Of a stretch of 63,309 nucleotides of DNA, positions 2,717 through 61,613 are shown piece by piece (the stretch's first letter is position 1; every line of letters starts with the position of its first letter). This DNA is from a virus. Its lineage: Duplodnaviria > Caudoviricetes. The position numbers were made by a program, and so were the translations under genes. Location of the stretch: the IMG/VR virus record IMGVR_UViG_3300036846_000911, positions 1-63,309 of that record, one strand, 5' to 3'. The notes beneath the pieces are model-generated. The model searched no databases. It was not told the DNA's origin and worked only from the letters and a program-made list of their open reading frames with translations.

Positions 2717-3811
2717 CTACGCCGACGCCTCGGTGGCGCCTTCCCGCGCGGCCTGCTTCGATGCGGCCACCACCTCGTCGTAGGTGAGACCGACGCTCTC
2801 CCCGACGGCTTCGACGACAGCGTCGGCGACGGTCTGGGCGATGTCGTCGACCTGGTCGTCGGAGAGGGTGATCGCACCCGGTACCGGGCCGAAGTTTTCC
2901 GCCGTCCAGCCGAGCCGAATCCAGCCGTCGGCGGACCACTCCGCCGGGTTCGCGTTGTCCGGTGCCCGTTGGATGCTGTAGGCGCCCTGGCCGGCGAGGT
3001 ATTTGATGTCGTTCAACGATTCGTCGGCGACCGGGTTGGATTGGAAGCCGATGCACAGGTACGTCTGTCCCGTGATCGGGTCGAGCGCGAGCATGCCCAT
3101 GTCTTCCTCTTTCACTGCGGGCGTTGAAGGCTTCGCACCGATGAGTGCGGCGAAGTCCGCCTCGGTGCCTTTGAATGCGTTGGCGTCGACGCCGTAGACG
3201 CCGCCGAAGCTGGCGTTGTCGCTGTACTGCCAGAAGGTGGGGGTCTGGCCGCTGTAGGACGCCCAGCCGGGGCCGGAATCGCCACCGGAGTGGTTGTAGG
3301 AGACGTCGTACGGTTCCGATGGGCAGCCGTTGCCCTGCCAGGTGGGGTAGTTGGCGTTCCACAACCGCACCGGCGAGTTGTTCACCTCGTTGCCGTACTG
3401 GCCCTTGGAGGCGTACAGGAACACGGTCTGGCTGCCGGTGTTGTCGAGCAGCCACTGCGCGAACTGGACGCCGAGGCTGCCGGGAACGGCGTCGTAGGAC
3501 CATTTTTCGAGGTCGACCTGGAAGATGAACGCCGGGTCGGCACGCCAGTCGTAGTGACGGGAAATCGCGTTGAGGAAGTAGTTCCCTTGGGAGTCGATCG
3601 AGGGTGAGGACCGCACGACGTGGTAGGAGCCGACCCACAGCTCGGCGTTTTTCGCCCAGTTGATGGCGGAACCGAAGTCGTCGTCGGTCATCGAGGTGCC
3701 CTCGGACGCCTTGTGGGTGAACCAGACGCAGCCGGCCGCCTTCGCTGAGCGCAGCCCGTCCTGGCTCAACGACTGGTAGTGGGATGCGTCGATGCCAAAG
3801 CAGTTGGCCAT
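2717..3811 (-). CDS. Endolysin, GH25 muramidase domain plus C-terminal extension
   Basis: FGIDASHYQ, KASEG, GSYH, DLE catalytic motif, LWNANY, FWQYSD, VDANAF = GH25 signature; ATG at 3811. Confidence 0.88.
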   Translation of the reverse strand: MANCFGIDASHYQSLSQDGLRSAKAAGCVWFTHKASEGTSMTDDDFGSAINWAKNAELWVGSYHVVRSSPSIDSQGNYFLNAISRHYDWRADPAFIFQVDLEKWSYDAVPGSLGVQFAQWLLDNTGSQTVFLYASKGQYGNEVNNSPVRLWNANYPTWQGNGCPSEPYDVSYNHSGGDSGPGWASYSGQTPTFWQYSDNASFGGVYGVDANAFKGTEADFAALIGAKPSTPAVKEEDMGMLALDPITGQTYLCIGFQSNPVADESLNDIKYLAGQGAYSIQRAPDNANPAEWSADGWIRLGWTAENFGPVPGAITLSDDQVDDIAQTVADAVVEAVGESVGLTYDEVVAASKQAAREGATEASA

Positions 3812-3812
3812 C

Positions 3813-5048: not shown

Positions 5049-6007
5049 CAGTCACTGATCCGGAAGAACGTCATCGACGCGGCGCCGTTTACGCCGCCGG
5101 AGCCGGTGTTGTTGTACACGGACAGGTGGTAGGTCTGGGCATTGACCATCTGGACCGACTCGGTGACGTTGATGTCGACCCAGGAACCGCCGTACGTGTT
5201 GAGGATCGTGTCGAACGCCATCGCCGAGGTGGTGATGTCGGTGAGGGTGGCCTGGAAGTAGCCGCCGCTGGTGGTGCTCGCGGTGTTGCTGAGGAAGAAC
5301 CGCAGCCGCATCAGGAAGATGTAGGCGCCGGACCGTTGGCACAGCAGCGTCGGGCTGGGGCTGGCGCCGGAGATGATGATGACGTTGCCCTGCCCGCCGG
5401 CCACCGGCGACCAGGGCACCAGGAAGTTATTGACGGCGTTGGCGATGGTCATGTTGGTGGCCGAGAACTTGTTCCAGGGAAGTCCTGCCCACCTAACCGT
5501 TAAAGGGCTGGCGGCGGTGCCCAACCCCGAAACGTTCACCTCCGGGGCGACCGAGGCAATGGAGATGCCGTTCCAGTTGACGTGCAACGGATTCCCGGCG
5601 GTGCCATCCCCGGAGAGTTGTACCCCGGTGTCCGGGACGTTGTTGAGTTGCGCCCCGAGCCAGGTGGCGAGGATCGGGTCGCCGGAGATGCCGGTGCCGG
5701 CCAGGGACACCGAGTCGGTGTTGCCGACGTGACTGGCCCCGGCGGTGACGCCGGGTACCAGCAGCCCGCCGTCGGTTCCAGTGGTGAGAACCTGCCCGGA
5801 GTCGGTGGAGACTTTCACCGACAGTCGTCCGGCATTGACCTCCATCGGCTCATCGGCGCGGCCGTCGATGCAGGCCATGGTGGCGTCGCAGTCGGGTACC
5901 GCCTTGAGCAGCCAGGGCGAGTCGACCGAACCGTTGCCGGTGAGGTTGAGTGAAGCGTCGACCGACAGTACGCAGGCGCAGGCGCCGTCGCATCCGCAGC
6001 GTGCCAT
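5048..6007 (-). CDS. Minor tail protein with GxGT..P repeats
   Basis: End of tail operon; Cys-rich N-terminus MARCGCDGACAC; four [L/V][S/T/A]G.G[T/S]..xP repeats. Confidence 0.65.
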   Translation of the reverse strand: MARCGCDGACACVLSVDASLNLTGNGSVDSPWLLKAVPDCDATMACIDGRADEPMEVNAGRLSVKVSTDSGQVLTTGTDGGLLVPGVTAGASHVGNTDSVSLAGTGISGDPILATWLGAQLNNVPDTGVQLSGDGTAGNPLHVNWNGISIASVAPEVNVSGLGTAASPLTVRWAGLPWNKFSATNMTIANAVNNFLVPWSPVAGGQGNVIIISGASPSPTLLCQRSGAYIFLMRLRFFLSNTASTTSGGYFQATLTDITTSAMAFDTILNTYGGSWVDINVTESVQMVNAQTYHLSVYNNTGSGGVNGAASMTFFRISD

Positions 6008-6022
6008 GGGCGTTTCCCCTTT

Positions 6023-6631
6023 CTAGATGACCGCGAAACCGTGTGCGGTGACGCGGTAGTGGCAGCGCTGCAAGGCACCGCCGGCTCCGGCGTTGCCGAT
6101 CATCTGGGCGCCGAAGTTGACGGTCACCGACGTCTGCGGTTCCATCCGCGCATCGGTGACGGCGAGGTGCACGGCGGTGGTGAAGTCGAAGGTCGGGGGT
6201 GCCCCGGCGGTGGCGCCGGGCCAGTAGTTGCCGGCCCCGACGGTCACGTACTGGGTGACGGGGCTGCCGACACTCGCACCGACTTCGAACCACATGGTGC
6301 CGTTGGCGTTGATGGACGCCACGCCGATCCAGGCGCAGGAGACGTGCACCTGCATCGCCCAGCATTCGGGGTTGGTGATGGTGACTGCCTGGCTGGGGAA
6401 CAGCACGTGCGCGCCGTTGGCGACGGTGGCGGTGGAGTAGTTGATGAACTCGTTTTCGTACGTCAGTGACACCTGGTCCGGCGTCCAGACACCACCGTTG
6501 GGGTCGGTGTAGAGGCCGTTACCGACGGACAGGGCGCACGGTGACGTCTTCGCCTTCGACCGTTCCCCGGCGAGGATCAGGTTGCCGTTGTCGTCGGTGG
6601 AGAACGCCGGCCCGGTGCAGATGGCGACCAT
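6023..6631 (-). CDS. Minor tail protein (beta-rich)
   Basis: Synteny in tail operon, beta-strand-like composition. Confidence 0.55.
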   Translation of the reverse strand: MVAICTGPAFSTDDNGNLILAGERSKAKTSPCALSVGNGLYTDPNGGVWTPDQVSLTYENEFINYSTATVANGAHVLFPSQAVTITNPECWAMQVHVSCAWIGVASINANGTMWFEVGASVGSPVTQYVTVGAGNYWPGATAGAPPTFDFTTAVHLAVTDARMEPQTSVTVNFGAQMIGNAGAGGALQRCHYRVTAHGFAVI

Positions 6632-7953: not shown

Positions 7954-8354
7954 CCGGTCACCTCGGTGATGGTGATCGTGACCTCGCCCGGCGGGCCGTA
8001 TCCGTGGCTGCGTTGCGTGACCCGCTCGCCGCCGCACAGTTCAACTCCGACGAGGTACTGCGACGAGTCGTTGGGGAGCAGGCCGTAGTCGCCGACGATG
8101 CCGTCGATGAGGGCTTTCGCGGTACCGAAGTAGTTGTGGTCGTCGCGGCGGCGCGCGTCGGGGAAATGCAGGGTGATCCGGATGCGTGCCCGTTGCAGTT
8201 TCGGGAGCCGGTTGGCGCGGGCATGCAGCGCCCCGGCGTCACGCCAGCTGCGGGTGCGTTGCGCCGTTCCGGCCAGCCGATGTTGGCGGGAGTTGGCGTT
8301 GATGAAAGCGTCCGGGGCGGGGATACGCATTTCGAAGATGCGAGGCTCACTCAT
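7950..8354 (-). CDS. RusA-like Holliday junction resolvase
   Basis: FPDARRRDDHNYFGTAKALIDG...LLPNDS matches the RusA D-x-x-N...K...D...D signature. Confidence 0.75.
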   Translation of the reverse strand: MSEPRIFEMRIPAPDAFINANSRQHRLAGTAQRTRSWRDAGALHARANRLPKLQRARIRITLHFPDARRRDDHNYFGTAKALIDGIVGDYGLLPNDSSQYLVGVELCGGERVTQRSHGYGPPGEVTITITEVTG

Positions 8355-29084: not shown

Positions 29085-29766
29085 ATGGCCCGACGGAAGC
29101 CGCATCGAAATACCCGGCCGCCGGCACACCCTGTACTACCGCGACGACGGCGACACCGGCCTGTGCGCCGACGTCGCGGCCGACGCCACCCGCCATTGGT
29201 TCACCGGCCGGGACTGCGCCGGGCTCACCTGGGCCGACCTGCTCGACATCCACGGCGAAGACGACCTGGCCGCCGCCCGCCCCCTGTACCAGCCGACCGA
29301 ACAACGCCCACCCGCCTACCGGCCGGTAACGGTGCTGCTCGGCGGCACCGTCGAAGCGCCCACCGCGTGGGTGTTCACCGACACGGACGACGCACACGCC
29401 GCACGCGCCGACGGCGCCGGCACCGTGCTGCTGCCCACCGTCGTGTTCGGCGTCGGGGTGCTGCCGACCCGGCACACCATCTTCACCGGCTGGGCACGGG
29501 TCGGCCGGGACTTCCACGACGACTGCGCACCGCAGATCGTCCAAACTGAAACCCATCACATCCGACCCGACACGTCCCCGTGGCTGCAATGCAGCGGCGA
29601 CGACCAGGACACCATCGCGGTACTCGGCCACGACGTCCTGGACCTGTACGCCGCCGGCCCCAGCGCCGCCGACGTCATCAACAACCTGGATCTACGGATG
29701 GCGCTACTGATCGACGCACGGATGTCACCACCCACGCCGATCGGCGCCCACGCGGCGCAAATGTGA
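29068..29766 (+). CDS. Hypothetical protein
   Basis: Long ORF with phage codon usage; start uncertain. Confidence 0.55.
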   Translation: MTTLREWPDGSRIEIPGRRHTLYYRDDGDTGLCADVAADATRHWFTGRDCAGLTWADLLDIHGEDDLAAARPLYQPTEQRPPAYRPVTVLLGGTVEAPTAWVFTDTDDAHAARADGAGTVLLPTVVFGVGVLPTRHTIFTGWARVGRDFHDDCAPQIVQTETHHIRPDTSPWLQCSGDDQDTIAVLGHDVLDLYAAGPSAADVINNLDLRMALLIDARMSPPTPIGAHAAQM

Positions 29767-30083
29767 GTGAAGACCCCGACCCGCTCGACGGCCCGCTGAG
29801 CAACCTGGGAATGGCGGCGGCGACCGGCAAATACCTCGCGATCCAGCTGCTCTCCATCGACACCTACGCCCCCGACGAGCGCTCCATCGTGCCCAGCTCC
29901 CGCCCCCGTGAAGTGCAGAGCATCCCGGTCATCTTCGCCTCCGAGGGCGGCTGCGAAGGACGCCACCAGGGGTGCCTGTCACTGCGCTACCGGGCGGCCG
30001 GGGTGTACGGCCGGCTACACCTCACCCCGGCCGATGCGCGGCGCCTGGAGGCCATCCTGCACGCCCTCTGCGCCGGTGAGTGA
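29763..30083 (+). CDS. Hypothetical protein
   Basis: GTGA-coupled ORF. Confidence 0.55.
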   Translation: MSEDPDPLDGPLSNLGMAAATGKYLAIQLLSIDTYAPDERSIVPSSRPREVQSIPVIFASEGGCEGRHQGCLSLRYRAAGVYGRLHLTPADARRLEAILHALCAGE

Positions 30084-30243
30084 CGCCGCAAGCCAGCCTC
30101 ACCCGACCCAGCCCTGACCGATGCGCGTTTGCGCTGCGACTCAGGGCGCCCCGGCGTTCGAACACACGTCTAGTTGAGTGTAGGGGACTCAACTCTGGGG
30201 ATTCGGCGAGAGCCCTTCTCTCAAAAATCGACCTTCGCATCGC

Positions 30244-30700
30244 CATGACAAGTCTTTAACCATCGGCCGACAGGGGCTGACCTGCGGCTATGACAGGAAT
30301 GACAGGAATGACAACTTTCCCGGAAACCGATGATACGTGAAAGGTTCTTCATCGAGACCGTCGAGACGAAACGGCGCCACACGGGCAAGGATTCGAGAGG
30401 GGGCCATGACAACTTTGAGCGATTTGCAACCAGCTCCTAGAGTCTCTTCTATGTCATCTATTATCTCCTATTACTCTCACTACCCTACTTTCACGCAATA
30501 GTTGTCATAGTTGTCATGGACTGTAGGAAGTGCCAGGTCAGAGGCCGAATTTCACAGTGACGAAACGCGCCTGAGAGTTGTCATGCATGACAGGAATTTT
30601 CGTCATGGGACGGTAGATGGCAGAGTGTCAAAATGTCCGCAGATAGGCGATGGTTTCTGACACCAGGGTCCCATGACAAGAATCCATGACAACTTTCTCC
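30244..30700. repeat. Iteron-like ATGACA/TGTCAT repeats flanking an AT-rich core; putative replication origin
   Basis: About 12 ATGACA or TGTCAT copies, e.g. ATGACAGGAATGACAGGAATGACAAC near 30290 and GTTGTCATAGTTGTCAT at 30501; AT/pyrimidine-rich tract ~30440-30500. Confidence 0.55.
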
Positions 30701-30871
30701 ATGGATTTGAGGGCTACCATGTCCGCTTCATGCCCCGATGTCCGTTTTAGAATGATGACGGCTCCGCCGTCCCATTCGAAAACGGACACCAGGTCCTGAA
30801 TCGGACATGGTACGCGGGGGGGCCGCGATGTGAGCTTGCTCACGTCGCGACGGCCTTGACAGTGAGAGCGC

Positions 30872-30908
30872 TCGATGTCCGTTGTCGCTTCGCGACAACG
30901 GACATCGA
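30872..30908. repeat. Perfect 17 bp stem hairpin with 3 nt loop
   Basis: TCGATGTCCGTTGTCGC-TTC-GCGACAACGGACATCGA. Confidence 0.9.
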
Positions 30909-30913
30909 TGCCT

Positions 30914-30951
30914 CGCTCCACTATGGAGCGCATGCGCTCCATAGTGGAGCG
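30914..30951. repeat. Perfect 38 bp palindrome with nested hairpins
   Basis: CGCTCCACTATGGAGCGCA|TGCGCTCCATAGTGGAGCG; each half itself folds (CGCTCCA-3 nt-TGGAGCG). Confidence 0.95.
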
Positions 30952-31498
30952 TCAGCTAGGGGCGGTACTGACATGCGGTCAGTATCGGACAACGGCAGCG
31001 AGGGCTGAACCCGTTGCATGTCAACGCTTTCCGCCATCACTCGCGCCCGGTATGCACCGATATGAGTGCGTGCCACGTCCACATTGGACATGCTTGCGTT
31101 GACCGCAAGCCGGACTGTCCACCTGCGACACGTGCACGGGCCTGCCTGGCGAGCGCCCCATTCGATGTCCCGTGCTGCCCCGTTGTCATGCCCGTCGATG
31201 TCCCCCAGGCTGCCATGCTGTGACGTGCTTCGATGCCGCGTGCGCCGTGTCCAGGTACATGCGTCTATGCCCTTGGCCGGCCGCGGCCTGTCGCATGTGG
31301 ACACCCGTCCAGGTACACCCGTCGATGTCCTGGCCGCGTCTCGCGTGGTGTAGGACCGTCCACCCGCGACCCTCGCACGCTACCGCCCCACCGCTAGCGT
31401 GAGTAGGAATCCTGGCCAGCTGTCAAGCTGCGGAAATGTGGGATAGCCGACACCCGACTTGCTACCGGAATCGCGCAATTAACGACTAGGCTCACGGT

Positions 31499-31873
31499 AT
31501 GACTTCCACACAGACACCCGCTAGCGGGTACGCGCCGCGCCCGGCCACCATGCGCACCATCATCGGCGAACAGCTGGCCTGGCAGGCTGAGGCTGAAACC
31601 CTCGCCGTTGCGCTCTCAGCCGCTATCCGCAGCGACGCGTCCCCGTCCGCGTACACGGACATCCTTGACAACCTTGCCTACGCGATCTTTCAGGGCTGGT
31701 CGGCCGAATGCGGTTTCGAGTCCGACGCTGACGCGTGGGACGTCGTCGAAGAGTTCTGGCAGGCAGGCCGCACGATCGCTAGCGCCATCGACTCACGCGC
31801 GGTGTACCGGGCGGAACTCGCTCACACCCTCGCGATCTACGGCACGATCAACTGGACCTCCGTCCAATCCTGA
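31499..31873 (+). CDS. Hypothetical protein (first gene of hairpin-delimited array)
   Basis: 124 aa acidic ORF; TAGGCT -10-like element just upstream suggests a leaderless start. Confidence 0.65.
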   Translation: MTSTQTPASGYAPRPATMRTIIGEQLAWQAEAETLAVALSAAIRSDASPSAYTDILDNLAYAIFQGWSAECGFESDADAWDVVEEFWQAGRTIASAIDSRAVYRAELAHTLAIYGTINWTSVQS

Positions 31874-31877
31874 CTAT

Positions 31878-31942
31878 CCGGCCACTCGTGGTGGACAACG
31901 GGCGCGTAGCCCGTTGCCTGCCATGTCCGACCGGACAACCAA
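31878..31942 (+). repeat. Conserved intergenic hairpin element, copy 1
   Basis: CCGGCCACTCGTGGTGGACAACGG...CCGTTGCCTGCCATGTCCGACCGGAC. Confidence 0.95.
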
Positions 31943-31959
31943 CCGAACGGAGTCTTGAC

Positions 31960-32550
31960 ATGGCACAGGAATCGGCCGAATCGCTGACCAGCGCGTTTAT
32001 CGGCAAGGCTGACGACACGGAGTGGCGCGCGGTTACGCGTGGCGACATCCGCTACCGCACAGCCAACGGCGCGCCAATCGTCGACGGTATGCGCGCATTC
32101 AACAACAACCTTGACGTCACCATTGTCCGCGTGACGCGCGGCGCCGTTCCCGGTAGCGAGTTTCACGCGAGTTGGGATGGCTGGTTTGAGTGCGAATCGG
32201 TTACGGGCGAGCGCATGCCGATCATGGATGGCGAGCGCTTGACGACGCGTCACCCGTTTACGGGTGAGCGTGCCGACGATGCCGCGCGCGTGGCTATCGC
32301 TGATTTGGACCGTTGGGATTACGCGCGGAGCATGACAGAAGCGCTCGATTGCGTGAAAGAGGAACGCGCGCGTTTGCTGTCCGAACGTCGGTCGAATTTG
32401 GGCTATGCCGTAGCTGACTTGGATTCGCTGTGCGCGCTTTACGGTCTAACTGCCCTGCAAACGCGTGACCTTATGGCGTACGCGCTCGGCTGGCCAGTTG
32501 ACGAATTGCCGATTGTTGAGCCTAGGGCAATCCCGTATCCGTTGGCCTAA
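31960..32550 (+). CDS. Hypothetical protein
   Basis: GGAG RBS then ATG 31960, between hairpin copies 1 and 2. Confidence 0.7.
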   Translation: MAQESAESLTSAFIGKADDTEWRAVTRGDIRYRTANGAPIVDGMRAFNNNLDVTIVRVTRGAVPGSEFHASWDGWFECESVTGERMPIMDGERLTTRHPFTGERADDAARVAIADLDRWDYARSMTEALDCVKEERARLLSERRSNLGYAVADLDSLCALYGLTALQTRDLMAYALGWPVDELPIVEPRAIPYPLA

Positions 32551-32555
32551 CCACC

Positions 32556-32622
32556 CCGGCCACTCGTGGTGGACAACGGCGCGATTCGCTCCGTTGCCTG
32601 CCATGTCCGACCGGACAACCAA
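32556..32622 (+). repeat. Conserved intergenic hairpin element, copy 2
   Basis: Invariant 26-mer at 32591-32616. Confidence 0.95.
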
Positions 32623-32645
32623 TCGCACAGCAAAGGAATGCCGCC

Positions 32646-33623
32646 ATGTCACAGCACACCATCGACTACCTGAACGAAAACACGCTCATTGGTTTCACGG
32701 GCATGCGTGGCAACGCGTGGACGTGGAAGGCCGGTACGGACAATCACTTTGCGGGTGAGGTACCAATGGAGCGCGTACTCCAACTGTTCGCGTGGGAGCC
32801 GACCGTCAATCTGATGGTGTGCCCTTGCGGTTGTGGGGAAACGTGGAAAGCGGTTTCGCGTTCCGACAACCGGCACCGCATGGGTATCTTCAAAGAGGGC
32901 TACGAACCGCACTCTTTCAAGACGTGGCTCGTGGAAGCGGTCGGGACCATTCTTGACGACACGCTCCGTATCGGTTCGGCCGGTCAGCTGCGATTCGGTG
33001 CCGTCGGTTGGGTATCGGCCGAGACTCCCGACACGCTCACTACTCCGGAGGGTGTCGATTTCCGGCCACACTTGCTGGCGACGACGTCTTTTGACGGGAG
33101 CGTTGCCACGACCTATAAGCCGGTCGTGACACGCGTGGTGTGTGACAACACGTTGGAGATGGCAAAGCGCGAAAACAGCGCGACGTACAAAATCAAGCAC
33201 ACGCGCAATAGCGGTTTCCGCGTGGCCAGTGCGCGCGATGCGCTCGGAATCGTCCACGCCGTTGCGGAAGACTTTGAGGCGGAAGTACGCGAGTTGTGCG
33301 CGACTACCGTCACAGAGAAGCAATGGGCTGCATTCCTTGACGCGTACGCGCCGATGCCGGATGACAAGGGTCGTGGCCGCACGATTGCCGAAAACAAGCG
33401 TGACGGTTTGGCGCGCATGTACCGCCACGACTTGCGCGCAGCTCCATGGTCGGGAACGGCTTTCGGTGTGTTGCAGGCGGTTGACACGTGGACGCAACAC
33501 GAACAGACCGTGCGCAACGTCGGACGGGCAGAGCGCAACATGCTCTCCATCGTGACGGGCAAGCACGCGAAAGCCTCTGATGAGGTAGCGACCACGCTGC
33601 GCAAGGTACTTGCCTCTGTCTGA
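32646..33623 (+). CDS. DUF932 (LGT_TIGR03299 phage/plasmid) family protein
   Basis: SAGQLRFG, LLATTSFDGS, TRVVCDNTL, IKHTRN, GTAFGVLQAV motifs. Confidence 0.88.
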   Translation: MSQHTIDYLNENTLIGFTGMRGNAWTWKAGTDNHFAGEVPMERVLQLFAWEPTVNLMVCPCGCGETWKAVSRSDNRHRMGIFKEGYEPHSFKTWLVEAVGTILDDTLRIGSAGQLRFGAVGWVSAETPDTLTTPEGVDFRPHLLATTSFDGSVATTYKPVVTRVVCDNTLEMAKRENSATYKIKHTRNSGFRVASARDALGIVHAVAEDFEAEVRELCATTVTEKQWAAFLDAYAPMPDDKGRGRTIAENKRDGLARMYRHDLRAAPWSGTAFGVLQAVDTWTQHEQTVRNVGRAERNMLSIVTGKHAKASDEVATTLRKVLASV

Positions 33624-33628
33624 CGATT

Positions 33629-33693
33629 CCGGCCACTCATGGTGGGCAACGGGGCAACCCGTTGCCTGCCATGTCCGACCGGACTACCGATCA
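33629..33693 (+). repeat. Conserved intergenic hairpin element, copy 3
   Basis: Invariant 26-mer at 33659-33684; GCAA tetraloop. Confidence 0.95.
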
Positions 33694-33713
33694 CCCGTAC
33701 AGAGGAAACGCAC

Positions 33714-34184
33714 ATGACTACCGACACCGAACCGACCGTGACCGTTCACCCTATGGCAATGGGAGTGTTGCGCGCGATTGCCAGCGACTTGGAGGCAATC
33801 GGCGACACGATCGGACGCGAATCTACGGTGTACCGCGCAATGTCCGACTCGTGGCTACGCGCTTCCGGTAACGTCTGGCGACTCTTGGAGGGTGGCGGTT
33901 CACTCTCCCGTGACGATTCCCGTTCCCTGTATATCGTGACCGGCTACGGCATGCATGTGGGAGTCATCTTTTTCGCCGATCGCGACACCTACAAGGACGC
34001 AATGGTGGCAGGGACCGATCCGATGATGCCGCACGTGAACGCGTGCAGTCGACACAACGGCGCTGCCTACCCGTCGACTACGGAGCATTGCGCCGGTCAT
34101 CCTGGCGAAGGTGCACCGGTACGGGAGTCGTTCTGTATCCGTCGCACCATTCCGATGCCCGGTACATGGAGCCTGCACTCCTGA
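33714..34184 (+). CDS. Hypothetical protein
   Basis: GAGGAAACGCAC-ATG leader; ends GTWSLHS. Confidence 0.7.
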   Translation: MTTDTEPTVTVHPMAMGVLRAIASDLEAIGDTIGRESTVYRAMSDSWLRASGNVWRLLEGGGSLSRDDSRSLYIVTGYGMHVGVIFFADRDTYKDAMVAGTDPMMPHVNACSRHNGAAYPSTTEHCAGHPGEGAPVRESFCIRRTIPMPGTWSLHS

Positions 34185-34260
34185 CCGGTCGGACATGGTG
34201 AGCAACGGCGCGATTGCGATTCGCTCCGTTGCCTGCCATGTCCGACCGGACTACCGATCA
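34185..34260 (+). repeat. Conserved intergenic hairpin element, copy 4 (fully paired basal stem)
   Basis: CCGGTCGGACATGG...CCATGTCCGACCGG; invariant 26-mer at 34226-34251. Confidence 0.95.
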
Positions 34261-34280
34261 ACTCAGCGAAGGAAACGCAC

Positions 34281-34526
34281 ATGAGTACCCACCAATCGCG
34301 CCGTACGGGCCGCACGCGTGCCCGGATGGCTGCCCTAGCCTTGTCTGCCTCTTTGCTCTCTACGGGCGCGTACGGCGCCGTGACTGCCCTTGCCGACCCT
34401 CGCCCGTGGATAGCGTGCGGTCCCGGAGCGTGTACGGCTGGTGTCGACGTCCACGGGTACGCGGTCAGCATGGCTGTGCTGCGGAGCGCTCCGGTCGTTT
34501 CCGTCGTGATCGGTGCCGACCGATGA
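34281..34526 (+). CDS. Small signal-peptide/membrane protein
   Basis: AAGGAAACGCAC-ATG leader; basic N-terminus then hydrophobic stretch. Confidence 0.6.
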   Translation: MSTHQSRRTGRTRARMAALALSASLLSTGAYGAVTALADPRPWIACGPGACTAGVDVHGYAVSMAVLRSAPVVSVVIGADR

Positions 34527-34717
34527 TGCGCGCGCGACGTCGTGAGGCTGTCAGCCTGGCTCTCGCCGCTGTGCTCGGTATCGGTCTGTACGCCGCAGGA
34601 TTCACCCTCCGACCGGAGTGCCAGGCCAGCCGCTGCGAGTTGCTGGTGAGCGCTCCGGGTGAGGCATGGCTGGCGGTTGGCATGCATGGCTGGCACCCGT
34701 ACGCGGTTCACAGCTGA
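34523..34717 (+). CDS. Small signal-anchor protein
   Basis: ATGA overlap; RARRR then hydrophobic helix, Cys pair. Confidence 0.5.
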   Translation: MMRARRREAVSLALAAVLGIGLYAAGFTLRPECQASRCELLVSAPGEAWLAVGMHGWHPYAVHS

Positions 34718-34726
34718 CCTTGGTTC

Positions 34727-34798
34727 GCACGCGTGAACGCGTGTACCTGGACGACCGTCGCATGTGGACGGTGTACCTGGACACGCGTTCACGCGTGC
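34727..34798. repeat. 18 bp inverted repeat enclosing two GTGTACCTGGAC direct repeats
   Basis: GCACGCGTGAACGCGTGT (34727-34744) / ACACGCGTTCACGCGTGC (34781-34798). Confidence 0.9.
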
Positions 34799-34869
34799 TT
34801 GCGCGTATGCGGTAGCGCGTGGTTTACTTGACGGGTACCGCCCGCCGGGAGCAAAGGAGAAGACAACCC

Positions 34870-35076
34870 ATGACGCTTGCCCGCATATGGGATGCGAATT
34901 TTAGTCACCGCTACATCGACGTTGTCGACGTAACCGACGGAATGCTTGAGCTTGAGCTTCCGGACGGCGAGTCGCTGATGTTGAGCGAGGGCAGTGCGCG
35001 CGTTTTGCGGCGCGAGATCAACCGCTACCTCGCCGGCCAGGCCCAACTGGCTAAGCAAGCGTCGCAAGACTCTTGA
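34870..35076 (+). CDS. Hypothetical protein
   Basis: AAAGGAG RBS, ATG 34870. Confidence 0.6.
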   Translation: MTLARIWDANFSHRYIDVVDVTDGMLELELPDGESLMLSEGSARVLRREINRYLAGQAQLAKQASQDS

Positions 35077-35118
35077 CCGGCCGGTCACCCGCGAGGCAAC
35101 GTGCCTAGCGTCTCGTCA

Positions 35119-35158
35119 AAGCTGGCACGGTGTGGCCTAGCTCACACCGTGCCAGCTT
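35119..35158. repeat. 16 bp stem hairpin
   Basis: AAGCTGGCACGGTGTG-GCCTAGCT-CACACCGTGCCAGCTT. Confidence 0.85.
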
Positions 35159-35191
35159 GCGGGAACCCGGTAGCAGGGCTAGACTTTCGGT

Positions 35192-35662
35192 ATGAGCACA
35201 GAGAGCAACACGGAGGGCGCGGGGGCCGCGCGCGCGGGCCGCCCGGCCGCAGCCGCGCCCACCACGGCCGAAACCGGCGACGCGGCGCCCGACCCGGCCG
35301 TGGTGGCCGCAGCCCTGGACGGGTACGTCGAGTGTGCGCTGTGGTCCGAGCTGGACGACGACGGCGAGCCGCTGGACGCCCACCACGCACGGGAGGCGAT
35401 CCACGTCGACAGTCTCGCCGACATGTACGCCGATGTGCTGGCGTTCATCCGTGGTTGCCTGCAAGAGCGCCCGGACGTGTTCGAGGGTATGGCACCCGGC
35501 CAGATAGGCCACGATTTCTGGCTGACTCGCAACCATCACGGCGCGGGTTTCTGGGATCGCGGGTTGGGCGAACGGGGCGAGTGGTTGACGGCCATGGCCC
35601 ATCCGTACGGAGACGCATCGCTGTACGTCGGCGATGATGGCAACGTGTACTACAACGGCTAG
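35192..35662 (+). CDS. Conserved phage early-region protein (GHDFWLTRNxHGAGFWDR family)
   Basis: YVECALWSE...QIGHDFWLTRNHHGAGFWDRG motif; acidic. Confidence 0.75.
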   Translation: MSTESNTEGAGAARAGRPAAAAPTTAETGDAAPDPAVVAAALDGYVECALWSELDDDGEPLDAHHAREAIHVDSLADMYADVLAFIRGCLQERPDVFEGMAPGQIGHDFWLTRNHHGAGFWDRGLGERGEWLTAMAHPYGDASLYVGDDGNVYYNG

Positions 35663-35671
35663 GAGACGACC

Positions 35672-35992
35672 ATGATGGACACAGAAACGTACGTGCTGAA
35701 CGCGAATGTGGAGATGCACAGGATCGAGATGTGCCCCGATTGCGTGCTCATCACAGCCAACGGCGAGCCCGGCGGCGACCCGGCGGATTTCGACCTGGAC
35801 CGTTGGTCGGCCGGGGTTGAGAATTTGTGGCCGCACGCGGACGGCTGGTCGTTCGGCAATGGCTGGTCGGACCCGGACGCGGAGCCGTGGTTTTCCTGGA
35901 GCCCGTGCGAGGGTTGCGGGTCAACACTCGGCGGGGATCGCGAGTACGGGTACGTGGGAAGGCCCGCATCAAGATCAACTTCTCCGGAGTGA
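35672..35992 (+). CDS. Small Zn-binding acidic protein
   Basis: CPDC...ANGE...FSWSPCEGCGSTLGGDR. Confidence 0.7.
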   Translation: MMDTETYVLNANVEMHRIEMCPDCVLITANGEPGGDPADFDLDRWSAGVENLWPHADGWSFGNGWSDPDAEPWFSWSPCEGCGSTLGGDREYGYVGRPASRSTSPE

Positions 35993-36078
35993 TCCTGGGA
36001 AGGCCATCGACCAAGATCAACTTCACTATCAAGATCATCTTCTCTAGGTGGGTCCACGGGGATCACCTATCAAGATCA
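35970..36078 (+). repeat. Cluster of CAAGATCA direct repeats (operator-like)
   Basis: Copies at 35970, 36012, 36030, 36071; further copies at 36456, 36518, 36814, 37282. Confidence 0.65.
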
Positions 36079-45205: not shown

Positions 45206-45553
45206 ATGGCGCCACAGTCGTACCCGTTGACCCTGTACCGGGGTGACACGTTCTCGTGGCGATTCGTGTTCTGGAATGACCTGGACCGCACAATCCCGTA
45301 TGACCTGACCGGGGTCACACCAGCCGCGCAGATCCGGGCTACGTGTCTGCTGATGACGTTGGACTGCACAGTGTTGCTGCCGAACACTGTCGCCGTCGAG
45401 CTGCCCGCCGATGCGTGGCCGCTGAGTTGGCCGGCGCTGACCGCAGCCGGTTGGGATCTTCAACTGACCCAACCGGACGGCACGGTGCACACCATGGTCG
45501 CCGGCCCGGTGTACGTCACGACCGACGTGACCCGGCTGGTGGGTGCGCCGTGA
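45206..45553 (+). CDS. BppU/LtfC-like beta-sandwich fibre-anchoring protein
   Basis: [46 protein letters not shown]. Confidence 0.75.
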
Positions 45554-46797
45554 CCGCGCCCGCCGTGATCGACGTCATCGTCGAGGCGTCGCCGATCTAC
45601 ATCGACGTCATCGACCAGTCCGGACCGCCCGGCCCGGTGGGTCCCGCCGGCCCGACGGGGCCGCCCGGTCCCGCTGGCCCGACCGGCGACCCCGGCCCGA
45701 TCGGGCCGCAGGGACCGCAGGGCGATCCCGGTGCGACCGGTCCGGCGGGTGATCCTGGTCCGACTGGTGCGACCGGCGACCCCGGTCCGCAGGGGCCGAT
45801 CGGCCCGACCGGCAACACCGGCCCAGCCGGGCCGACCGGACCGGCGGGTGATCCTGGCCCCACGGGTCCAACTGGTACGACTGGTGCCACCGGCGATCCT
45901 GGTCCGCAGGGGCCGATCGGACCGACCGGCAGTACCGGCGCGCAGGGGCCAATCGGCAACACCGGCGCGCAGGGGCCGATCGGCGACCCTGGCCCGCAGG
46001 GGCCGGCCGGTAACACCGGCGCGACCGGCCCGGCCGGCGCGACTGGCGCGACTGGCGACCCCGGTCCGCAGGGGCCGACCGGACCGACCGGCGACACCGG
46101 CCCGCAGGGGCCGATCGGGCTGACTGGTGCCACCGGCGCGACCGGCGACCCCGGCCCGATCGGACCGCAGGGCGACCCCGGTGCGACCGGCCCGGCCGGT
46201 GCGACGGGTCCGGCTGGCCCGACCGGCGACCCCGGCCCGCAGGGACCGGCGGGCGCGTGGGACGGGTCGTGGCGGCCCGTCGACCATGCCTTGATCTCCT
46301 GGATGTACGACCCGGCGGTGACGTCGAATTTCTCGTCGGCGTTGCAGGGTGCCGGGCAGATTCAGTTGATGCGGCTGCACATCCCGGCGGCAACAAACGT
46401 CACCGGGATCACCGTCTACCTCGCCAACGGTGGCGCCGGGCTTGTGGCGGGTCAGTGTTGGGCGGCGCTGTTCGACGCGGCCACCGGGAATCTGATCGGG
46501 GTCACCGCCGACCAGGCGACGAACTGGGCGTCGGCCGGCGCGAAACGGATGGATCTGACTGGTGGCCCGTTTGCCCGGCCGGTCGGGGACGTGTACGCCG
46601 GGTTGGTGTTCAACGGCACCACCAGTCCGAACGTCACCCGGCAGGCGGCCGGCGCACCGGCGCTGATCAACATCAATTTGGGGACGGGGTCGACGTACCG
46701 GTACGGGTTGACCACCGCCACGTACACGACGGCGCCGCCGTCAACGCTGGGTGTGCGGGGTATCGGCTTCCACTCGTTCTGGGCGGCGCTGCACTGA
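45550..46797 (+). CDS. Collagen-like fibre protein with C-terminal globular domain
   Basis: About 70 uninterrupted Gly-X-Y triplets ([12 protein letters not shown]...), beta-rich C-terminal domain. Confidence 0.9.
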
Positions 46798-47301: not shown

Positions 47302-47526
47302 GTGATGAGTGTTCGGGTGCTGGTGCGGGTCCACTGTGACGTGTGCGGCGGCGACGAGCTGATGCCGCAGGCGGGGGCGTCGCCGGAGCGGGCTCGGCTG
47401 ATCCTGCACGCCGAGGGGTGGCGGGTTTCGTCGACGGGGATCGCCGACATCTGCGGGTCGTGTGTCAGGCTGCGGCAACTGCGTCGCCGTCCTGTGTCGC
47501 CGAGGACAGCGCCCGTCGGGCCTTGA
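47302..47526 (+). CDS. Small Zn-ribbon protein
   Basis: CDVC...AR......GW...DICGSC. Confidence 0.55.
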   Translation: MMSVRVLVRVHCDVCGGDELMPQAGASPERARLILHAEGWRVSSTGIADICGSCVRLRQLRRRPVSPRTAPVGP

Positions 47527-48118
47527 TCCGTCGGTCGAGTTCCCCGCGTAGTGCTTCCATCCGGGCGACGCGGGCTGCCTCGTCGAGGTGGGTGAGGTCG
47601 ACACCGTCCACGGTGGACGCGCCACCGGCACGCCGGCGCATCGAGGTCTCTTCCGCCCACGAGGAGCGTTCCAGTTTCGAGGCGACCTCCGCGAGGCGTG
47701 ACAGCTCCAGTGGGGTGAGGGCGTCGATCGGGATGGTCAGTAGCCGTGCCTCCACGATGGACATGATGGAGCGGCCGAGTCGGGCGTGACGTTCGATCAT
47801 CTCGGTGCGTTGGTCGGCGGCTTTCGCGGAGAACAGCCGGTGCTGCTCCACATCCCAGGCGCCGGCCCGGTTGATCCACTGCCACTGGGTTGCGATGCGG
47901 TGGAAGTGATCCCGTGACTTGTGGGCGCGGTCGGCGGCTTTGGCGATGGTGCGGTCCTGGCCGAGGTCGCGGTAGGTGAGGAAGTGGACGTAGGAGTTTT
48001 CACTTTCGCCGGGCATGCGGTCCCACGGCGTGTGGGGTAGAACAATCTCCCCTTCCAGCGTCTCGGCTGGATCGTTCGCGTGTGGATTGCGGGTGACGAT
48101 CTCGTCAAGGTTGGCCAC
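47465..48118 (-). CDS. Terminase small subunit-like protein
   Basis: PWDRMPGES..Y..F..YRDLG..RT...W.W..RA.AWD motif, helical C-terminus with DLTHLDE. Confidence 0.6.
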   Translation of the reverse strand: MANLDEIVTRNPHANDPAETLEGEIVLPHTPWDRMPGESENSYVHFLTYRDLGQDRTIAKAADRAHKSRDHFHRIATQWQWINRAGAWDVEQHRLFSAKAADQRTEMIERHARLGRSIMSIVEARLLTIPIDALTPLELSRLAEVASKLERSSWAEETSMRRRAGGASTVDGVDLTHLDEAARVARMEALRGELDRRIKARRALSSATQDGDAVAAA

Positions 48119-54165: not shown

Positions 54166-54849
54166 ATGACTAATTGCGTACGGTGTTTTACACCGACCGA
54201 GGCATGTAAGACGTTGACGCTCCACCTAGGGGTCCAGGGCTTTCGGCTCGACCTATGCGTCAAGCACGCCGACCTGTTCGAGATTGAGATCTCAGCCTGG
54301 ACCCGCGTGGCCGTTGAGCTGCCCGTTTCCGCCGCCGAGCCGGTCTCCGCACCCCCTGCGCATGTTGCACCACGAACGTTGCGCAGTGTCCCTAGGCAGG
54401 TCGGTGTTGTCGACGAACCGCTGCCGGTGCCGGCGGTTTCGCAGCGCCAGGCCCTGGCCGCGATCCGCGAGCGGGAGCGTCTACGCGCAGCTCAGGAGGC
54501 GTTGCCGCCGCCGCAGCGGACGGTCCAGCTGACCGGGCGGGTGAACAACACCGCGATTCCGGCCGCCTTTAGTGATGCGCAAACGGCGTCGGAGAATGGG
54601 TGGCGCTTCACCGATCACGCAATTGAGCGTGCCCAGATGCGTAACATCCCGTTGGTCCTAGCGATGCAGGCGGTGTTGCGCCCGACGTGGACGCGCACCG
54701 CGAAGAACGGGGCCGCCTGGTACTACGGCAACGGAATGAGGGTCTGCGTCAACGAACGTGAGCACACCATCATCACCGTCTGCCGCCCCAACGAAGATGA
54801 TCCACACGTGTTTACCCACGCCTATCGCCGAGAGGTCGCAGCTTCATGA
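54166..54849 (+). CDS. Lsr2-dimerisation-like N-terminus fused to DUF4258-like C-terminal domain
   Basis: LTLHLGVQGFRLDLCVKHA; FTDHAIERAQMRNI...HTIITV. Confidence 0.55.
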   Translation: MTNCVRCFTPTEACKTLTLHLGVQGFRLDLCVKHADLFEIEISAWTRVAVELPVSAAEPVSAPPAHVAPRTLRSVPRQVGVVDEPLPVPAVSQRQALAAIRERERLRAAQEALPPPQRTVQLTGRVNNTAIPAAFSDAQTASENGWRFTDHAIERAQMRNIPLVLAMQAVLRPTWTRTAKNGAAWYYGNGMRVCVNEREHTIITVCRPNEDDPHVFTHAYRREVAAS

Positions 54850-55859
54850 GCACCGCCACCAAGCCCCTGTCCGGGCGCCGCATGCGCAACGACGAATACA
54901 AGACTATCTATGCCGATCTGGAGAAGTGGCTGATCAGCTGGGGCGTCAGCTACGCCTTCCAGCAGATTTCCGTCGAGCGGATCGACCTGGCCCGGTCGAT
55001 GAAGAACCAGGCCCGCATCGGTGAGCCGATCGACCGTGAAGTGGTCGAGCGGTACACCAACGCGATGGCCGACGGCGACGAGTTCCCCCCGGTCGTGGTG
55101 CACCGCACCCGCGAGGGGTACATCGTCATCGACGGTAACCACCGCGCCCACGCGGCGATCGGCGCCCGCCTGGACCAGCTTCCCGCGTTCGTCATCGAAG
55201 ACGCCACCGCAATGGCGATCACCGGCATGACGTTCGAGGCCAACGTGCGGCACGGGAAGAACGTCACCGAAACCGAACGCATCCACCATGCACTGTGGAT
55301 GGTCGACAACGGCATGTCCCTACAGGAAGCCGGCCGCCGGCTCGCCCTGCCGGCCGCCGCGCTGCGCCGGGCACGCCAGGAGATCGAAGCGAACCGCAGA
55401 GCAGACGCGGCCGGTGTCGACCGCCGGCAGTGGGACGCGATTCCCCCGACGGCGCGGGTGCGGCTGTGCAACGTCTCCACCGATGAGGGTTTCCTGGCGT
55501 TGACGAAACTCACCGTCGAGGCGGCGCTGGGCGTCACCGTCCTGTTCAACGTCGTATCCCAGATGAACGATTCGAAGTCGGCGTCCAAGCAGGTCGCGAT
55601 CGTCGCGCAGCTGCGCGAGGAGTACGCCGACCGGATCGCCGCGAACCGGGTCGGCGGCGCCGACAACATCAAAGGCATACGCTCCCGTGCGCCGAAAGCG
55701 TCGTGGTCCTCGGCGTTGGGCTTCGCGGCGGCGGTACCCCCGATCCGCTCCGTCATCGAATCGACGTCCCCGTCGGAGCGTGAAGAGATGCTGGCGAAGG
55801 TTCAGAAGACGATCGCGATGCTCACCGAGGCCGCGAGCGAGTTGGAGGCCGCGCGATGA
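54846..55859 (+). CDS. ParB/Srx N-terminal domain protein
   Basis: NQAR..PID...V..Y..AM..GDEFPPVVV...VIDGNHRAHA, N.RHG. Confidence 0.85.
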   Translation: MSTATKPLSGRRMRNDEYKTIYADLEKWLISWGVSYAFQQISVERIDLARSMKNQARIGEPIDREVVERYTNAMADGDEFPPVVVHRTREGYIVIDGNHRAHAAIGARLDQLPAFVIEDATAMAITGMTFEANVRHGKNVTETERIHHALWMVDNGMSLQEAGRRLALPAAALRRARQEIEANRRADAAGVDRRQWDAIPPTARVRLCNVSTDEGFLALTKLTVEAALGVTVLFNVVSQMNDSKSASKQVAIVAQLREEYADRIAANRVGGADNIKGIRSRAPKASWSSALGFAAAVPPIRSVIESTSPSEREEMLAKVQKTIAMLTEAASELEAAR

Positions 55860-60174: not shown

Positions 60175-60233
60175 CCGTCACTGGCAGGTAGTGCAGCTCG
60201 TTGATCCCTGACGCCGGATGCAGGGAGAACAAA

Positions 60234-61613
60234 ATGGCAAGTATCGTGCGCCGATTCAACCCGATCGCCTTCCGCGTCGTGTGGCGCGAGAAGGGTCTGC
60301 CGGGGCAGCAGGGACGGACGTTCCACACCCTGCCGGAGGCGAACCTGTTCCTCAAACTCGTTCAGGGCGAGGGGCGCGGCAACGACCGGATGCCCCCCGA
60401 CGAGGTGCTGCGCCGCTACGGCCTACTGCCCACCGGGTCGGGCGTGAAGGTGGAGCACGAGCAGCGGGGCGACCAGGTGACTGTCGTTGAGGCGGTTCGC
60501 CGCTACGTGGACGAATACCTTGCCGGCAAGCCCGAGCGGACCCGGCCGGCGGAGCGCACCCTCAAGGAGTACCGCTCGCTGTACCGCAACTACATCCTGG
60601 ATTCGGTGCTGGGCCAGTTCGATGTGGCGAATGTCGATGGCGAGCAGATCGAGCAGTGGGCCACCGAACAGTCCGGTCGGCAGCGCCGGGATCGGCGGGT
60701 CGACGAATCGGGTGCGCCGGTCCTGCTCTCCGCCGTCTCCATCAACAAGGCGATGACACTGCTCTCCGCCATGTTCAAGTGGGCAATGATGGGCATCTCC
60801 GGTCCGCGCGGGACGGATGGGCGTCGGATTCCGCTGCGGCGAATGGGTGGCAACCCGACGCTGGAGGTGGAGCGCGTCAAGGTGCACAAGAACGAGGAAG
60901 ACGAGAAGGCGGTGCTGTTCAACATCGCCGAATACGAGGCTTTCCTGCGGGCCATCTACGTGGTCGATCCGACGTGGGCGGACATGGTGGCGGTGACCAT
61001 GTTCACCGGAAGCCGGTTCGGTGAAATCACCGCACTGCGGGTGGAGCAGGTCGATTTCGACCTGGAGGTAATCAACTTCGACCGCCGTATCTCGGCGGGC
61101 AAAGAAGAAGGCGGTACGAAAGGTTCCAAGCGCGCCCCGGAAACTTGGATCAAGCGCCGCGTCCGTGTCCCCCAGGCGGTGATGACGCTGCTGCGGGCTC
61201 GCTGCTTCACGGCGAATGGCCGCCGTAAGCCGGGAACCGATTTCGTGTTCGACGGACCGGAGTTTTCGACGAACAAGCGGTGGTCGCCGGCATCGGACAA
61301 CGACCGTTGGGTACGCCTGGAACCGATACTCGACCTGTTCGAGTTGAACCGGCACTTCCGCCACCACAACATGCGGCACAGCTACGTGACGTTCCTCCAG
61401 GATCACGGCATCCCCGAAGTGATGGTCGGATTCGCGGTCGGCCACCGGGGCAAGTCGATGTCGGTGACGGGTCGGATTTACACCCACGTCACGCCAGAAA
61501 TGTGGACGAAGATTGTCAACATCTGGACTCCAGTCACCCGAGAGTTGTTGCAGATTCGGGAAAAGGGCTACGCCGCGCTTTTTGAGCGCCGCCTGCTGAG
61601 TGTGGCGTCGTAG
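60234..61613 (+). CDS. int: Tyrosine integrase
   Basis: Catalytic set TGSRFGE (R), TKG (K), HNMRHS (HxxR), VGH, IYTH (Y). Confidence 0.95.
   Translation: MASIVRRFNPIAFRVVWREKGLPGQQGRTFHTLPEANLFLKLVQGEGRGNDRMPPDEVLRRYGLLPTGSGVKVEHEQRGDQVTVVEAVRRYVDEYLAGKPERTRPAERTLKEYRSLYRNYILDSVLGQFDVANVDGEQIEQWATEQSGRQRRDRRVDESGAPVLLSAVSINKAMTLLSAMFKWAMMGISGPRGTDGRRIPLRRMGGNPTLEVERVKVHKNEEDEKAVLFNIAEYEAFLRAIYVVDPTWADMVAVTMFTGSRFGEITALRVEQVDFDLEVINFDRRISAGKEEGGTKGSKRAPETWIKRRVRVPQAVMTLLRARCFTANGRRKPGTDFVFDGPEFSTNKRWSPASDNDRWVRLEPILDLFELNRHFRHHNMRHSYVTFLQDHGIPEVMVGFAVGHRGKSMSVTGRIYTHVTPEMWTKIVNIWTPVTRELLQIREKGYAALFERRLLSVAS

Follow-up and report, generated by a model that had tools for sequence, protein, structure and literature searches.

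The 63,309-base window analysed here is a whole virus record of IMG/VR, IMGVR_UViG_3300036846_000911 (completeness estimate 100%), and its central feature is a hairpin repeat, one copy of which occupies each gap between the first five genes (A to E) of a putative early operon. The hairpin-separated genes form the head of a rightward block of non-structural genes that follows a non-coding region of 1.4 kilobases (kb). Listed in order along the DNA, with protein lengths in amino acids (aa), guanine-plus-cytosine (GC) content at third codon positions (GC3) and distances in nucleotides (nt) or base pairs (bp), the genes and hairpin copies are as follows.

31499-31873, + strand: gene A, 124 aa, GC3 0.80; first gene after the non-coding region, no family match.
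31878-31934, + strand: hairpin copy 1, in the A/B gap; arms at 31878-31901 and 31911-31934, 5x5 internal loop, GCGUA apical loop, leader ACAACCAA to 31942.
31960-32550, + strand: gene B, 196 aa, GC3 0.69; orphan.
32556-32614, + strand: hairpin copy 2, in the B/C gap; left arm the same as that of copy 1, apex CGCGATTCGCT as in copy 4, leader ACAACCAA to 32622.
32646-33623, + strand: gene C, 325 aa, GC3 0.72; DUF932 (TIGR03299, phrog_1221).
33629-33682, + strand: hairpin copy 3, in the C/D gap; 16 contiguous pairs, GCAA tetraloop, leader ACTACCGATCA to 33693.
33714-34184, + strand: gene D, 156 aa, GC3 0.69; no family match.
34185-34249, + strand: hairpin copy 4, in the D/E gap, directly after a TGA stop codon; basal 14 bp perfect, 6-nt GCGATT duplication in the apex, leader ACTACCGATCA to 34260.
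34281-34526, + strand: gene E, 81 aa, GC3 0.71; hydrophobic N-terminal stretch.
34523-34717, + strand: gene F, 64 aa, GC3 0.72; one hydrophobic stretch.

The repeat is marked by a 26-mer, CCGTTGCCTGCCATGTCCGACCGGAC, which is present four times on the + strand (at 31911, 32591, 33659 and 34226) with no mismatches; the genome contains no further match at up to three mismatches, and none is expected from 100 shuffles. A covariance model built from the four copies (R1) and run on the complete 63.3-kb genome recovers exactly these four, the next best match reaching 14.6 bits (E 0.13). In each copy the 26-mer is the right arm of an imperfect hairpin of approximately 55-65 bases with 24-nt arms, in agreement with a preliminary description of this DNA, which had singled out the same invariant right arm. 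The stop codons of A, B, C and D end at 31873, 32550, 33623 and 34184, and the CCGG stem bases begin 4, 5, 5 and 0 nt later, within the 0-5 nt given in that description. The stems finish 26, 32, 32 and 32 nt before the ATGs of B, C, D and E (31960, 32646, 33714 and 34281), each of which has a GGAG or AGGA Shine-Dalgarno sequence ahead of it. The elements had also been said to end just before the next ribosome-binding site, which holds if the conserved leader is counted but not for the stem itself, which stops 15-20 nt short of the Shine-Dalgarno sequence. Hairpins are confined to the 86-96-nt intercistronic gaps; the E/F junction, an ATGA overlap, and the later overlapping genes of the block have none. 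Coding sequence was rejected as an explanation of the 26-mer, because its frame relative to the neighbouring genes differs between copies and the open frame that runs through copies 1 and 3 is absent in copy 2.

As RNA, copies 1-4 fold with energies of -35.8, -31.9, -41.1 and -52.3 kcal/mol (z = -4.0, -3.5, -5.9 and -9.5), and for every copy none of 200 shuffles folded as well as the real sequence. When the 24 pairs are imposed on the four copies, 84.4% of the 96 cells pair, as opposed to 28-42% in controls with the partner shifted by 1-3 columns; the + strand folds contain 19-23 pairs per copy. Several details of the preliminary description are borne out by these folds, namely the tandem G-U pairs of the long stem (a U.G/G.U tandem is present in all four copies, including copy 4), the GCAA loop of copy 3 and the perfect pairing of the copy 4 left arm over its basal 14 bp. 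The two arms differ in conservation: the right arm is invariant, whereas there is variation in seven of the 24 columns of the left arm (Fisher p = 0.009). The left arm of copy 2 is that of copy 1 (24/24), and copy 3 agrees at 22 of 24 positions. In copies 1-3 the CCGG/CCGG base of 4 bp is topped by an identical 5x5 internal loop; five changes close this loop in copy 4, and the two left-arm changes of copy 3 improve its pairing.

Near-identical DNA was found in three soil metagenome runs from three studies, with five single-base differences from the record in 8 kb across the three; no RNA run is among those listed as containing the phage. One of these sequences, from run X3, has G for A at 31895, which converts the A.C mismatch of copy 1 to a G-C pair, as in copies 3 and 4; this is a weak observation from one contig at depth 4.3. 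With this variant included, ten left-arm differences from the form seen in copies 1 and 2 are available, nine of which raise complementarity to the right arm (both in copy 3, six of seven in copy 4 and the single one in run X3) and one of which lowers it. In a longer fold of 33610-33710, the end of gene C, CCUCUGUCUGACG, pairs with the CAGAGG region that holds the ribosome-binding site of gene D, lengthening the base of hairpin 3. Burial of the Shine-Dalgarno sequence by such extended pairing was considered as a general feature and rejected, as it was found for copy 3 alone.

Different parts of the element group the copies differently. By their left arms, copies 1, 2 and 3 belong together; by their apices, copy 2 goes with copy 4 (CGCGATTCGCT, with the 6-nt duplication in copy 4) and copy 1 with copy 3 (closing GGG/CCC); by their leaders, copies 1 and 2 share ACAACCAA, and copies 3 and 4 share ACTACCGATCA...AGGAAACGCACATGA, the pairwise sharing that had been noticed before. 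Judged from their sequences, the hairpin copies are mosaics of one another and exchange between them appears to have happened, so the earlier suggestion of recombination between neighbours fits the arms, apices and leaders alike. On the 3' side of the stem, conservation reaches the leader and, for copies 3 and 4, also covers the ribosome-binding site; the conserved unit is therefore tied to the downstream cistron.

The genes around the hairpins have little in common with one another or with known proteins. Genes A to G are mutually unrelated (among B-G, the best blastp E value is 0.05 and no 13-mer is shared), and tandem gene duplication was accordingly rejected as the origin of the array. No family was found for A, D, E, F or G in Pfam, PHROGs, NCBIfam or PADLOC; gene B likewise has none in Pfam, NCBIfam or PADLOC and has one weak PHROG match, to phrog_8476 (E 1.3e-05), a family whose function is not known. 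The sole match of the gene B product among 5.8 billion proteins is itself, and the gene D product has two distant metagenomic relatives, at 43% and 39% identity. The proposal that these are anti-defence genes finds no backing in the family searches of A, B and D-G, nor do titles and abstracts on DUF932 show an anti-defence role for the one recognisable member, gene C. GC3 is 0.69-0.72 in B-G, compared with 0.80 in A and 0.84 in gene H, and the 30-34 kb interval comprises the two lowest-GC 2-kb windows of 31. The median GC3 of 55 other genes is 0.85, in a list taken mostly from open reading frames (ORFs) pre-filtered at a GC3 of at least 0.75, the minimum of which is thus set by construction. 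As for the cassette-like array of the preliminary description, the regular intercistronic hairpins, the unrelated, orphan and compositionally atypical genes and a setting like that of the PeSL of T4-like phages (PMC2839356) agree with it. Excised circles or reordered cassettes received no support, since no such joints were found in the three soil runs, the sequences of which are contigs that break at the repeats and cannot reveal rare forms.

Gene A stands somewhat apart. It has no Shine-Dalgarno sequence, and its ATG is preceded, at a distance of 6 nt, by the TANNNT-type hexamer TAGGCT (both within 31487-31501), so its mRNA may be leaderless. The ESM Atlas holds its protein from Met18 (31550), which makes the start uncertain, and offers only low-confidence helical-bundle look-alikes.

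Searches for the repeat outside this genome were made with exact sequences in IMG/VR, genomes and metagenomes, so diverged families would have escaped them. The 26-mer has no match in IMG/VR; a degenerate apex pattern gave seven matches, all unrelated. The exact 20-mer has four matches in 185,579 species genomes and five in JGI metagenomes, all unrelated and none hairpin-like, mostly at gene starts reading ATGTCCGACCGGA. As exact 20-26-mers showed no multi-copy occurrence in other genomes, a host repeat of the REP or MITE type was rejected. Rfam models run on 29500-36000 at E <= 1 gave a single overlapping match, to sX7 on the opposite strand, at 23.5 bits against a gathering score of 55 bits (E 0.27). 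Comparison of the region with GenBank phages by megablast and blastn yielded nothing except one 145-nt match in DUF932, tblastn with genes B and D gave no match, and scans of IMG/VR returned two distant loci for DUF932, none for the MuF-like protein encoded elsewhere in the genome and none for a gene D alignment. Model R1 found nothing at E < 0.1 in five DUF932 loci of other phages and plasmids (L005, L006, L024, L025 and L026), and comparable hairpin repeats were not seen at L005, L006, L024 or L026. Locus L006, from a low-GC phage of IMG/VR, does have five copies of a 16-23-nt motif containing TTGTAATGTCC in the gene gaps around its DUF932 gene (518-6129); this DUF932 neighbourhood, too, has a repeated gap motif, though a different one.

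The interpretation that we favour, at a little less than an even chance, is that the four elements are a portable intercistronic module of messenger RNA (mRNA) that would serve for processing of the RNase III type or for stabilisation and whose repeats would recombine as well. The module would consist, in order, of a stop codon, a stem-loop with 24-bp arms, an unstructured A/C-rich leader of 10-20 nt, a Shine-Dalgarno sequence and a start codon, and would act on the + strand mRNA of an early operon comprising genes A to F; we infer that the region is transcribed as one mRNA. The uniform layout and the orientation along transcription, the same in all four copies, support this reading, as does the left arm of copies 1-3, which is conserved in its own right and is not a degenerate half-site. 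RNase III substrates include stems of the size seen here, 20-24 bp, and both the early RNase III sites of T7 and the early-mRNA processing sites of Bacillus phage SP82 are sequence-conserved hairpins between early cistrons. RNase III-type processing is favoured because stem length, the internal loop of three copies and sequence conservation recall those sites; moreover, the pairs of each + strand fold amount to about two turns of double-stranded RNA, as expected of an RNase III site. The stem-loop would then be a substrate of a host double-strand-specific endonuclease of the RNase III type, a structure protecting 3' ends, or both. Once cut or folded there, the mRNA would leave each orphan cistron, acquired horizontally, independent of those beside it, and the cistron that follows would have the invariant right arm and the leader as its 5' untranslated region. 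Direct repeats with 26-37 bases of identity are also substrates for homologous recombination, which would have made the copies mosaic and could add, delete or swap the intervening genes, as PeSL motifs do in T4-like phages; by this analogy, gene gain, loss or swap through the repeats is plausible. The corresponding parts of the preliminary description, which spoke of processing or expressing the genes individually and of recombination, are reasonable, and processing or individual expression is our best guess from the sequence.

Several observations weigh against this interpretation. Covariation is absent, with no pair changed on both sides (the right arm never varies), which leaves complementarity as the sole basis of the structure; folds of the reverse strand are about as stable as those of the + strand or more so, at -41.2, -33.7, -43.5 and -51.7 kcal/mol. 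Because of these two properties, action as RNA and action as DNA are not separable here. The invariant 26-nt arm exceeds what pairing needs and fits a site for a DNA- or RNA-binding protein, or recent copying, equally well. If the internal loop matters, the copies are not equivalent, as copy 4 is without it, and four copies in one genome are a small sample. No phage relative was found among GenBank phages or in IMG/VR that would permit a comparison of conservation over time. The genome search also revealed no phage RNase III gene, so that a host enzyme must be assumed.

Two alternatives place the function of the elements in the control of transcription. They might be DNA-level sites for a phage or host protein, as has been proposed for the ESAS of Cluster K mycobacteriophages and for further intergenic repeats of actinophages, with the right arm recognised, the hairpin a by-product of dyad symmetry and binding controlling transcription of the downstream gene. 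This we consider unlikely, though a serious candidate: the contrast between the invariant right arm and the seven variable left-arm columns suits it, as do the lack of covariation and the similar folding of both strands, and the right arm holds the heptamer ATGTCCG, six of whose 27 genomic copies lie in the 1.4-kb upstream non-coding region, several of them as CCATGTCCG or within palindromes. The authors of the Cluster K study preferred DNA-binding proteins for ESAS, where departures from the repeat do not support RNA pairing (PMC3203893). Arms of 24 bp set 4-19 nt apart are, however, far longer than usual operators, and the left arm of copies 1-3 departs from the right-arm complement at five or six of 14 basal positions and is nevertheless conserved, which would be unexpected for two half-sites of one dimer. 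Further, the upstream ATGTCCG pairs are head-to-head whereas the pair in copy 4 is tail-to-tail, family searches recognised no DNA-binding gene among A-G, and the pairing of 84% of cells is unlike ESAS. We give rather less credence to the possibility that the hairpins are partial terminators or attenuators without a U-tract, which would step transcription down along the operon or isolate its genes, perhaps regulated by a phage factor. In favour of this, the stable GC-rich stems come directly after stop codons, other hairpins that end gene blocks (30872-30908, 30914-30951 and 35119-35158) also lack a T-run, so that this phage may not use canonical tails, and PeSL stem-loops work as terminators or attenuators (PMC2839356). 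Yet what follows the stems is ACAACCAA or ACUACCGAUCA and includes no U-run, a terminator scan picked out none of the four, and purified mycobacterial RNA polymerase requires a U-tract, with NusA and NusG giving no rescue of hairpins that are without it (PMC3993855). Efficient terminators would also demand a promoter for each downstream gene; no promoter-like site was found in 30000-36000 and no phage-encoded sigma factor in the genome, and the invariant 26-nt arm is not needed by a terminator. The same absence of promoter-like sites, in a tailed double-stranded DNA phage, speaks against the analogy with single-stranded DNA promoters of plasmid leading regions that had been drawn earlier.

The remaining alternatives concern the origin and mobility of the repeat. 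Ranking slightly below attenuation is a functionless or selfish palindromic repeat, of the REP or MITE kind, copied into gaps by recombination or gene conversion, with the arm asymmetry resulting from templated correction of a quasi-palindrome. The mosaic structure of just four copies, all within 2.4 kb, is compatible with this; nine of ten left-arm changes raise complementarity, as correction by template switching produces, and there are no relatives showing long-term conservation. On the other hand, the exact 20-mer was in no hairpin-like context in the species genomes and JGI metagenomes, so the element does not belong to a host REP family; target-site duplications are absent, the genome has no copies outside this array, the spacing of stop codon, Shine-Dalgarno sequence and start codon is strictly regular with uniform orientation in all four copies, and no correction event has altered the right arm. 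A shade less credible again is a far-reaching extension of the preferred reading, that of a portable mRNA module, in which the 26-nt right arm, internal loop and leader would be the recognition site of one sequence-specific factor, of the phage or the host, that co-ordinately processes or translationally controls exchangeable orphan cistrons. The module would double as a crossover site for gaining and losing them, and the whole would be an actinophage cassette system joining a post-transcriptional regulon with PeSL- or integron-like exchange. Far less probable than any of these is the integron analogy of the preliminary description, by which the hairpins would be attC-like sites folding in single-stranded DNA and recombined by the phage tyrosine recombinase to capture or shuffle cassettes. 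Imperfect hairpins of attC length with unpaired bases, one per boundary and in one orientation, with unrelated orphan genes between them, mosaic copies and a phage tyrosine recombinase would all accord with it. Integron attC sites carry R''/L'' and L'/R' boxes of the form RYYYAAC ... GTTRRRY at the outer ends of the stem and are conserved in structure rather than sequence. The stem base here is CCGG/CCGG, with AAC/GTT near the apex and not at the outer ends where R''/R' lie, and 26 nt are identical among the copies. The sole tyrosine recombinase lies 26 kb away, has 470 aa and reaches 20.1 bits with the integron-integrase model TIGR02249, for which the cut-off is 265 bits, and it looks like an ordinary phage integrase; the soil runs contain no joints or circles, rare forms being beyond what contigs can show.

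The non-coding stretch directly upstream of gene A (30084-31498) is rich in repeats and palindromes and is the lowest-GC part of the genome. It contains 13 of the 25 genomic copies of ATGACA as well as the ATGTCCG copies mentioned above, and looks like a regulatory, origin or partition region. The features that mark it and the end of the A-F unit are listed here.

30715-30812: palindrome with 40-nt arms, 85% complementary.
30872-30908: palindrome with 17-nt perfect arms.
30914-30951: palindrome with 19-nt perfect arms.
31249-31317, + strand: pair of GTCCAGGTACA copies (starts at 31249 and 31307), upstream of gene A.
34727-34798: composite palindrome after gene F, with 18-nt perfect arms and a 36-nt spacer holding both inverted GTCCAGGTACA copies.

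GTCCAGGTACA occurs four times in the genome and no more, the two inverted copies being at 34742 and 34772 on the - strand, and GTCGCATGTGGAC is also common to the region upstream of gene A and the palindrome after gene F. The composite palindrome is likely the end or a regulatory boundary of the A-F unit, and the GTCCAGGTACA and GTCGCATGTGGAC sites could be operator sites or module boundaries of that unit.

The remainder of the genome, with an overall GC content of approximately 66%, encodes the large terminase, a major head protein of 649 aa (an unusual length), a portal, a MuF-like protein, a major tail protein and a head-tail adaptor, together with a GH25 lysin, a metallophosphatase, a collagen-repeat protein, a primase/D5 helicase, an exonuclease and a protein resembling ParB. 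The genome yielded no serine recombinase. Positions of three genes are as follows.

824-2404: large terminase.
54846-55859: ParB-like gene.
60201-61613: tyrosine integrase, 470 aa, the only tyrosine recombinase found in the genome.

The structural genes (2717-30083) are on two strands, with the head protein, a tape-measure-sized ORF and the lysin on the - strand and the major tail protein, adaptor, portal, MuF-like protein and a DNA methyltransferase on the + strand. The collagen triple-helix repeat protein (45343-46797, 484 aa, Pfam E 1.1e-32) lies in the non-structural block, and its repeats are the source of many repeated 11-mers in the genome. A leftward gene at 47465-48118 (- strand) matches a 'terminase small subunit' PHROG (E 2.6e-17); its place is a short leftward block a long way from the large terminase, and its product may regulate by binding DNA instead of taking part in packaging. 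The closest protein matches are to actinophages, with DUF932 at 42-44% identity to Rhodococcus phages and the portal approximately 33% identical to Arthrobacter and Gordonia phages, no closer. Because of these matches and of a gene content that includes an integrase, the phage is assigned, by its sequence, as a temperate-type, high-GC actinophage, uncultured, from soil and without a close sequenced relative.

Repeated motifs in the gene gaps of actinophages (SAS and ESAS, and those of Clusters O, EC, EG and EI) are many, and their functions have been unexplained since 2011. The ESAS of Cluster K are imperfect 17-bp inverted repeats with a 4-13-bp spacer and one better-conserved arm, located upstream of starts (PMC3203893); directly after them comes the SAS, a conserved 13-bp sequence at the ribosome-binding site. 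The hairpins described here resemble the ESAS and SAS of Cluster K mycobacteriophages and Cluster EF Microbacterium phages in their association with non-structural genes and long gaps, their position upstream of starts and their single orientation (PMC3203893 and PMC7302621). Like ESAS, they consist of inverted repeats that are imperfect and set apart by a spacer of variable length (4-19 nt here), the two arms being unequally conserved, and a conserved block over the ribosome-binding site, AGGAAACGCACATGA, is SAS-like in copies 3 and 4 alone. In contrast to ESAS, whose arms measure 17 bp and are better conserved on the left, the arms here measure 24 bp with better conservation on the right, and 84% of cells pair, while the ESAS departures do not support pairing (PMC3203893). 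The four copies lie within 2.4 kb, compared with 11-19 SAS over half a genome, their sequence does not resemble the published consensus, and no 13-bp SAS consensus extends across all copies.

The PeSL of T4-like phages (PMC2839356 and PMC4122927) share with the present element the order of stop codon, conserved stem-loop with G.T pairs, Shine-Dalgarno sequence and start codon, the orphan genes in a compositionally distinct plastic region and the direct-orientation repeats that are able to recombine. They differ from it in the mini-circle evidence and in the related genomes that reveal indels, neither of which is available here, and in sequence and host lineage, which are unrelated. Neither the embedded sigma-70-type promoter nor the AT-rich upstream tract of PeSL is present, the scan of 30000-36000 having returned no promoter-like site; by eye, TTGCCT with TACCGA (in copies 3 and 4) or AACCAA (in copies 1 and 2) 17 nt further on is correctly spaced but agrees with the -10 consensus at only two of six positions. 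The early RNase III sites of T7 and the SP82 sites are also conserved intercistronic hairpins, of approximately 50-60 nt, with an upper stem, internal loop and lower stem and several copies per operon. Unlike them, copy 4 is without an internal loop, the element has no Rfam or sequence match, and it is known from sequence alone. Integron attC sites are similar in that an imperfect hairpin lies at each boundary of promoterless genes in one orientation, and dissimilar in the adjacent integron integrase with its attI and Pc, the outer stem boxes and the conservation of structure rather than sequence.

The motifs of Clusters EC (18 bp), EI (30 bp), EG (an 18-bp inverted repeat) and O (a 17-bp dyad) are cluster-specific and lie in short gaps, 14-30 bp upstream of non-structural starts (PMC7302621 and PMC4351075). 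They are 17-30 bp long, asymmetric or short dyads and genome-wide, unlike the long hairpins of this phage. In Microbacterium phage Paschalis (L025), the EC motif published in PMC7302621 is found with one mismatch at 3956-3973, 28 nt upstream of the DUF932 gene; the gene family of gene C is therefore preceded by such a repeat in a second lineage. Another copy of the EC motif in Paschalis, at 7961-7978, precedes gene 65.

With its reach limited to four copies in one uncultured phage, the present element is an unusually clear case among these repeats, with an unambiguous hairpin length and a position strictly between stop and start codons. It contains a natural series, with the internal loop open in copies 1-3 and closed in copy 4 and with four different apical loops, which is directly usable in reporter and RNase assays. 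If it is a processing or insulating module, it would explain the context-independent expression of newly acquired orphan genes in high-GC phages and would provide a compact part for building actinobacterial operons; if it is a protein-binding site, it would inform the ESAS question. Repeated gene-gap motifs as such are already known from phages in the form of ESAS, PeSL and T7 RNase III sites, and within this company the element makes up a new sequence family, distinct in its architecture and clearly hairpin-forming.

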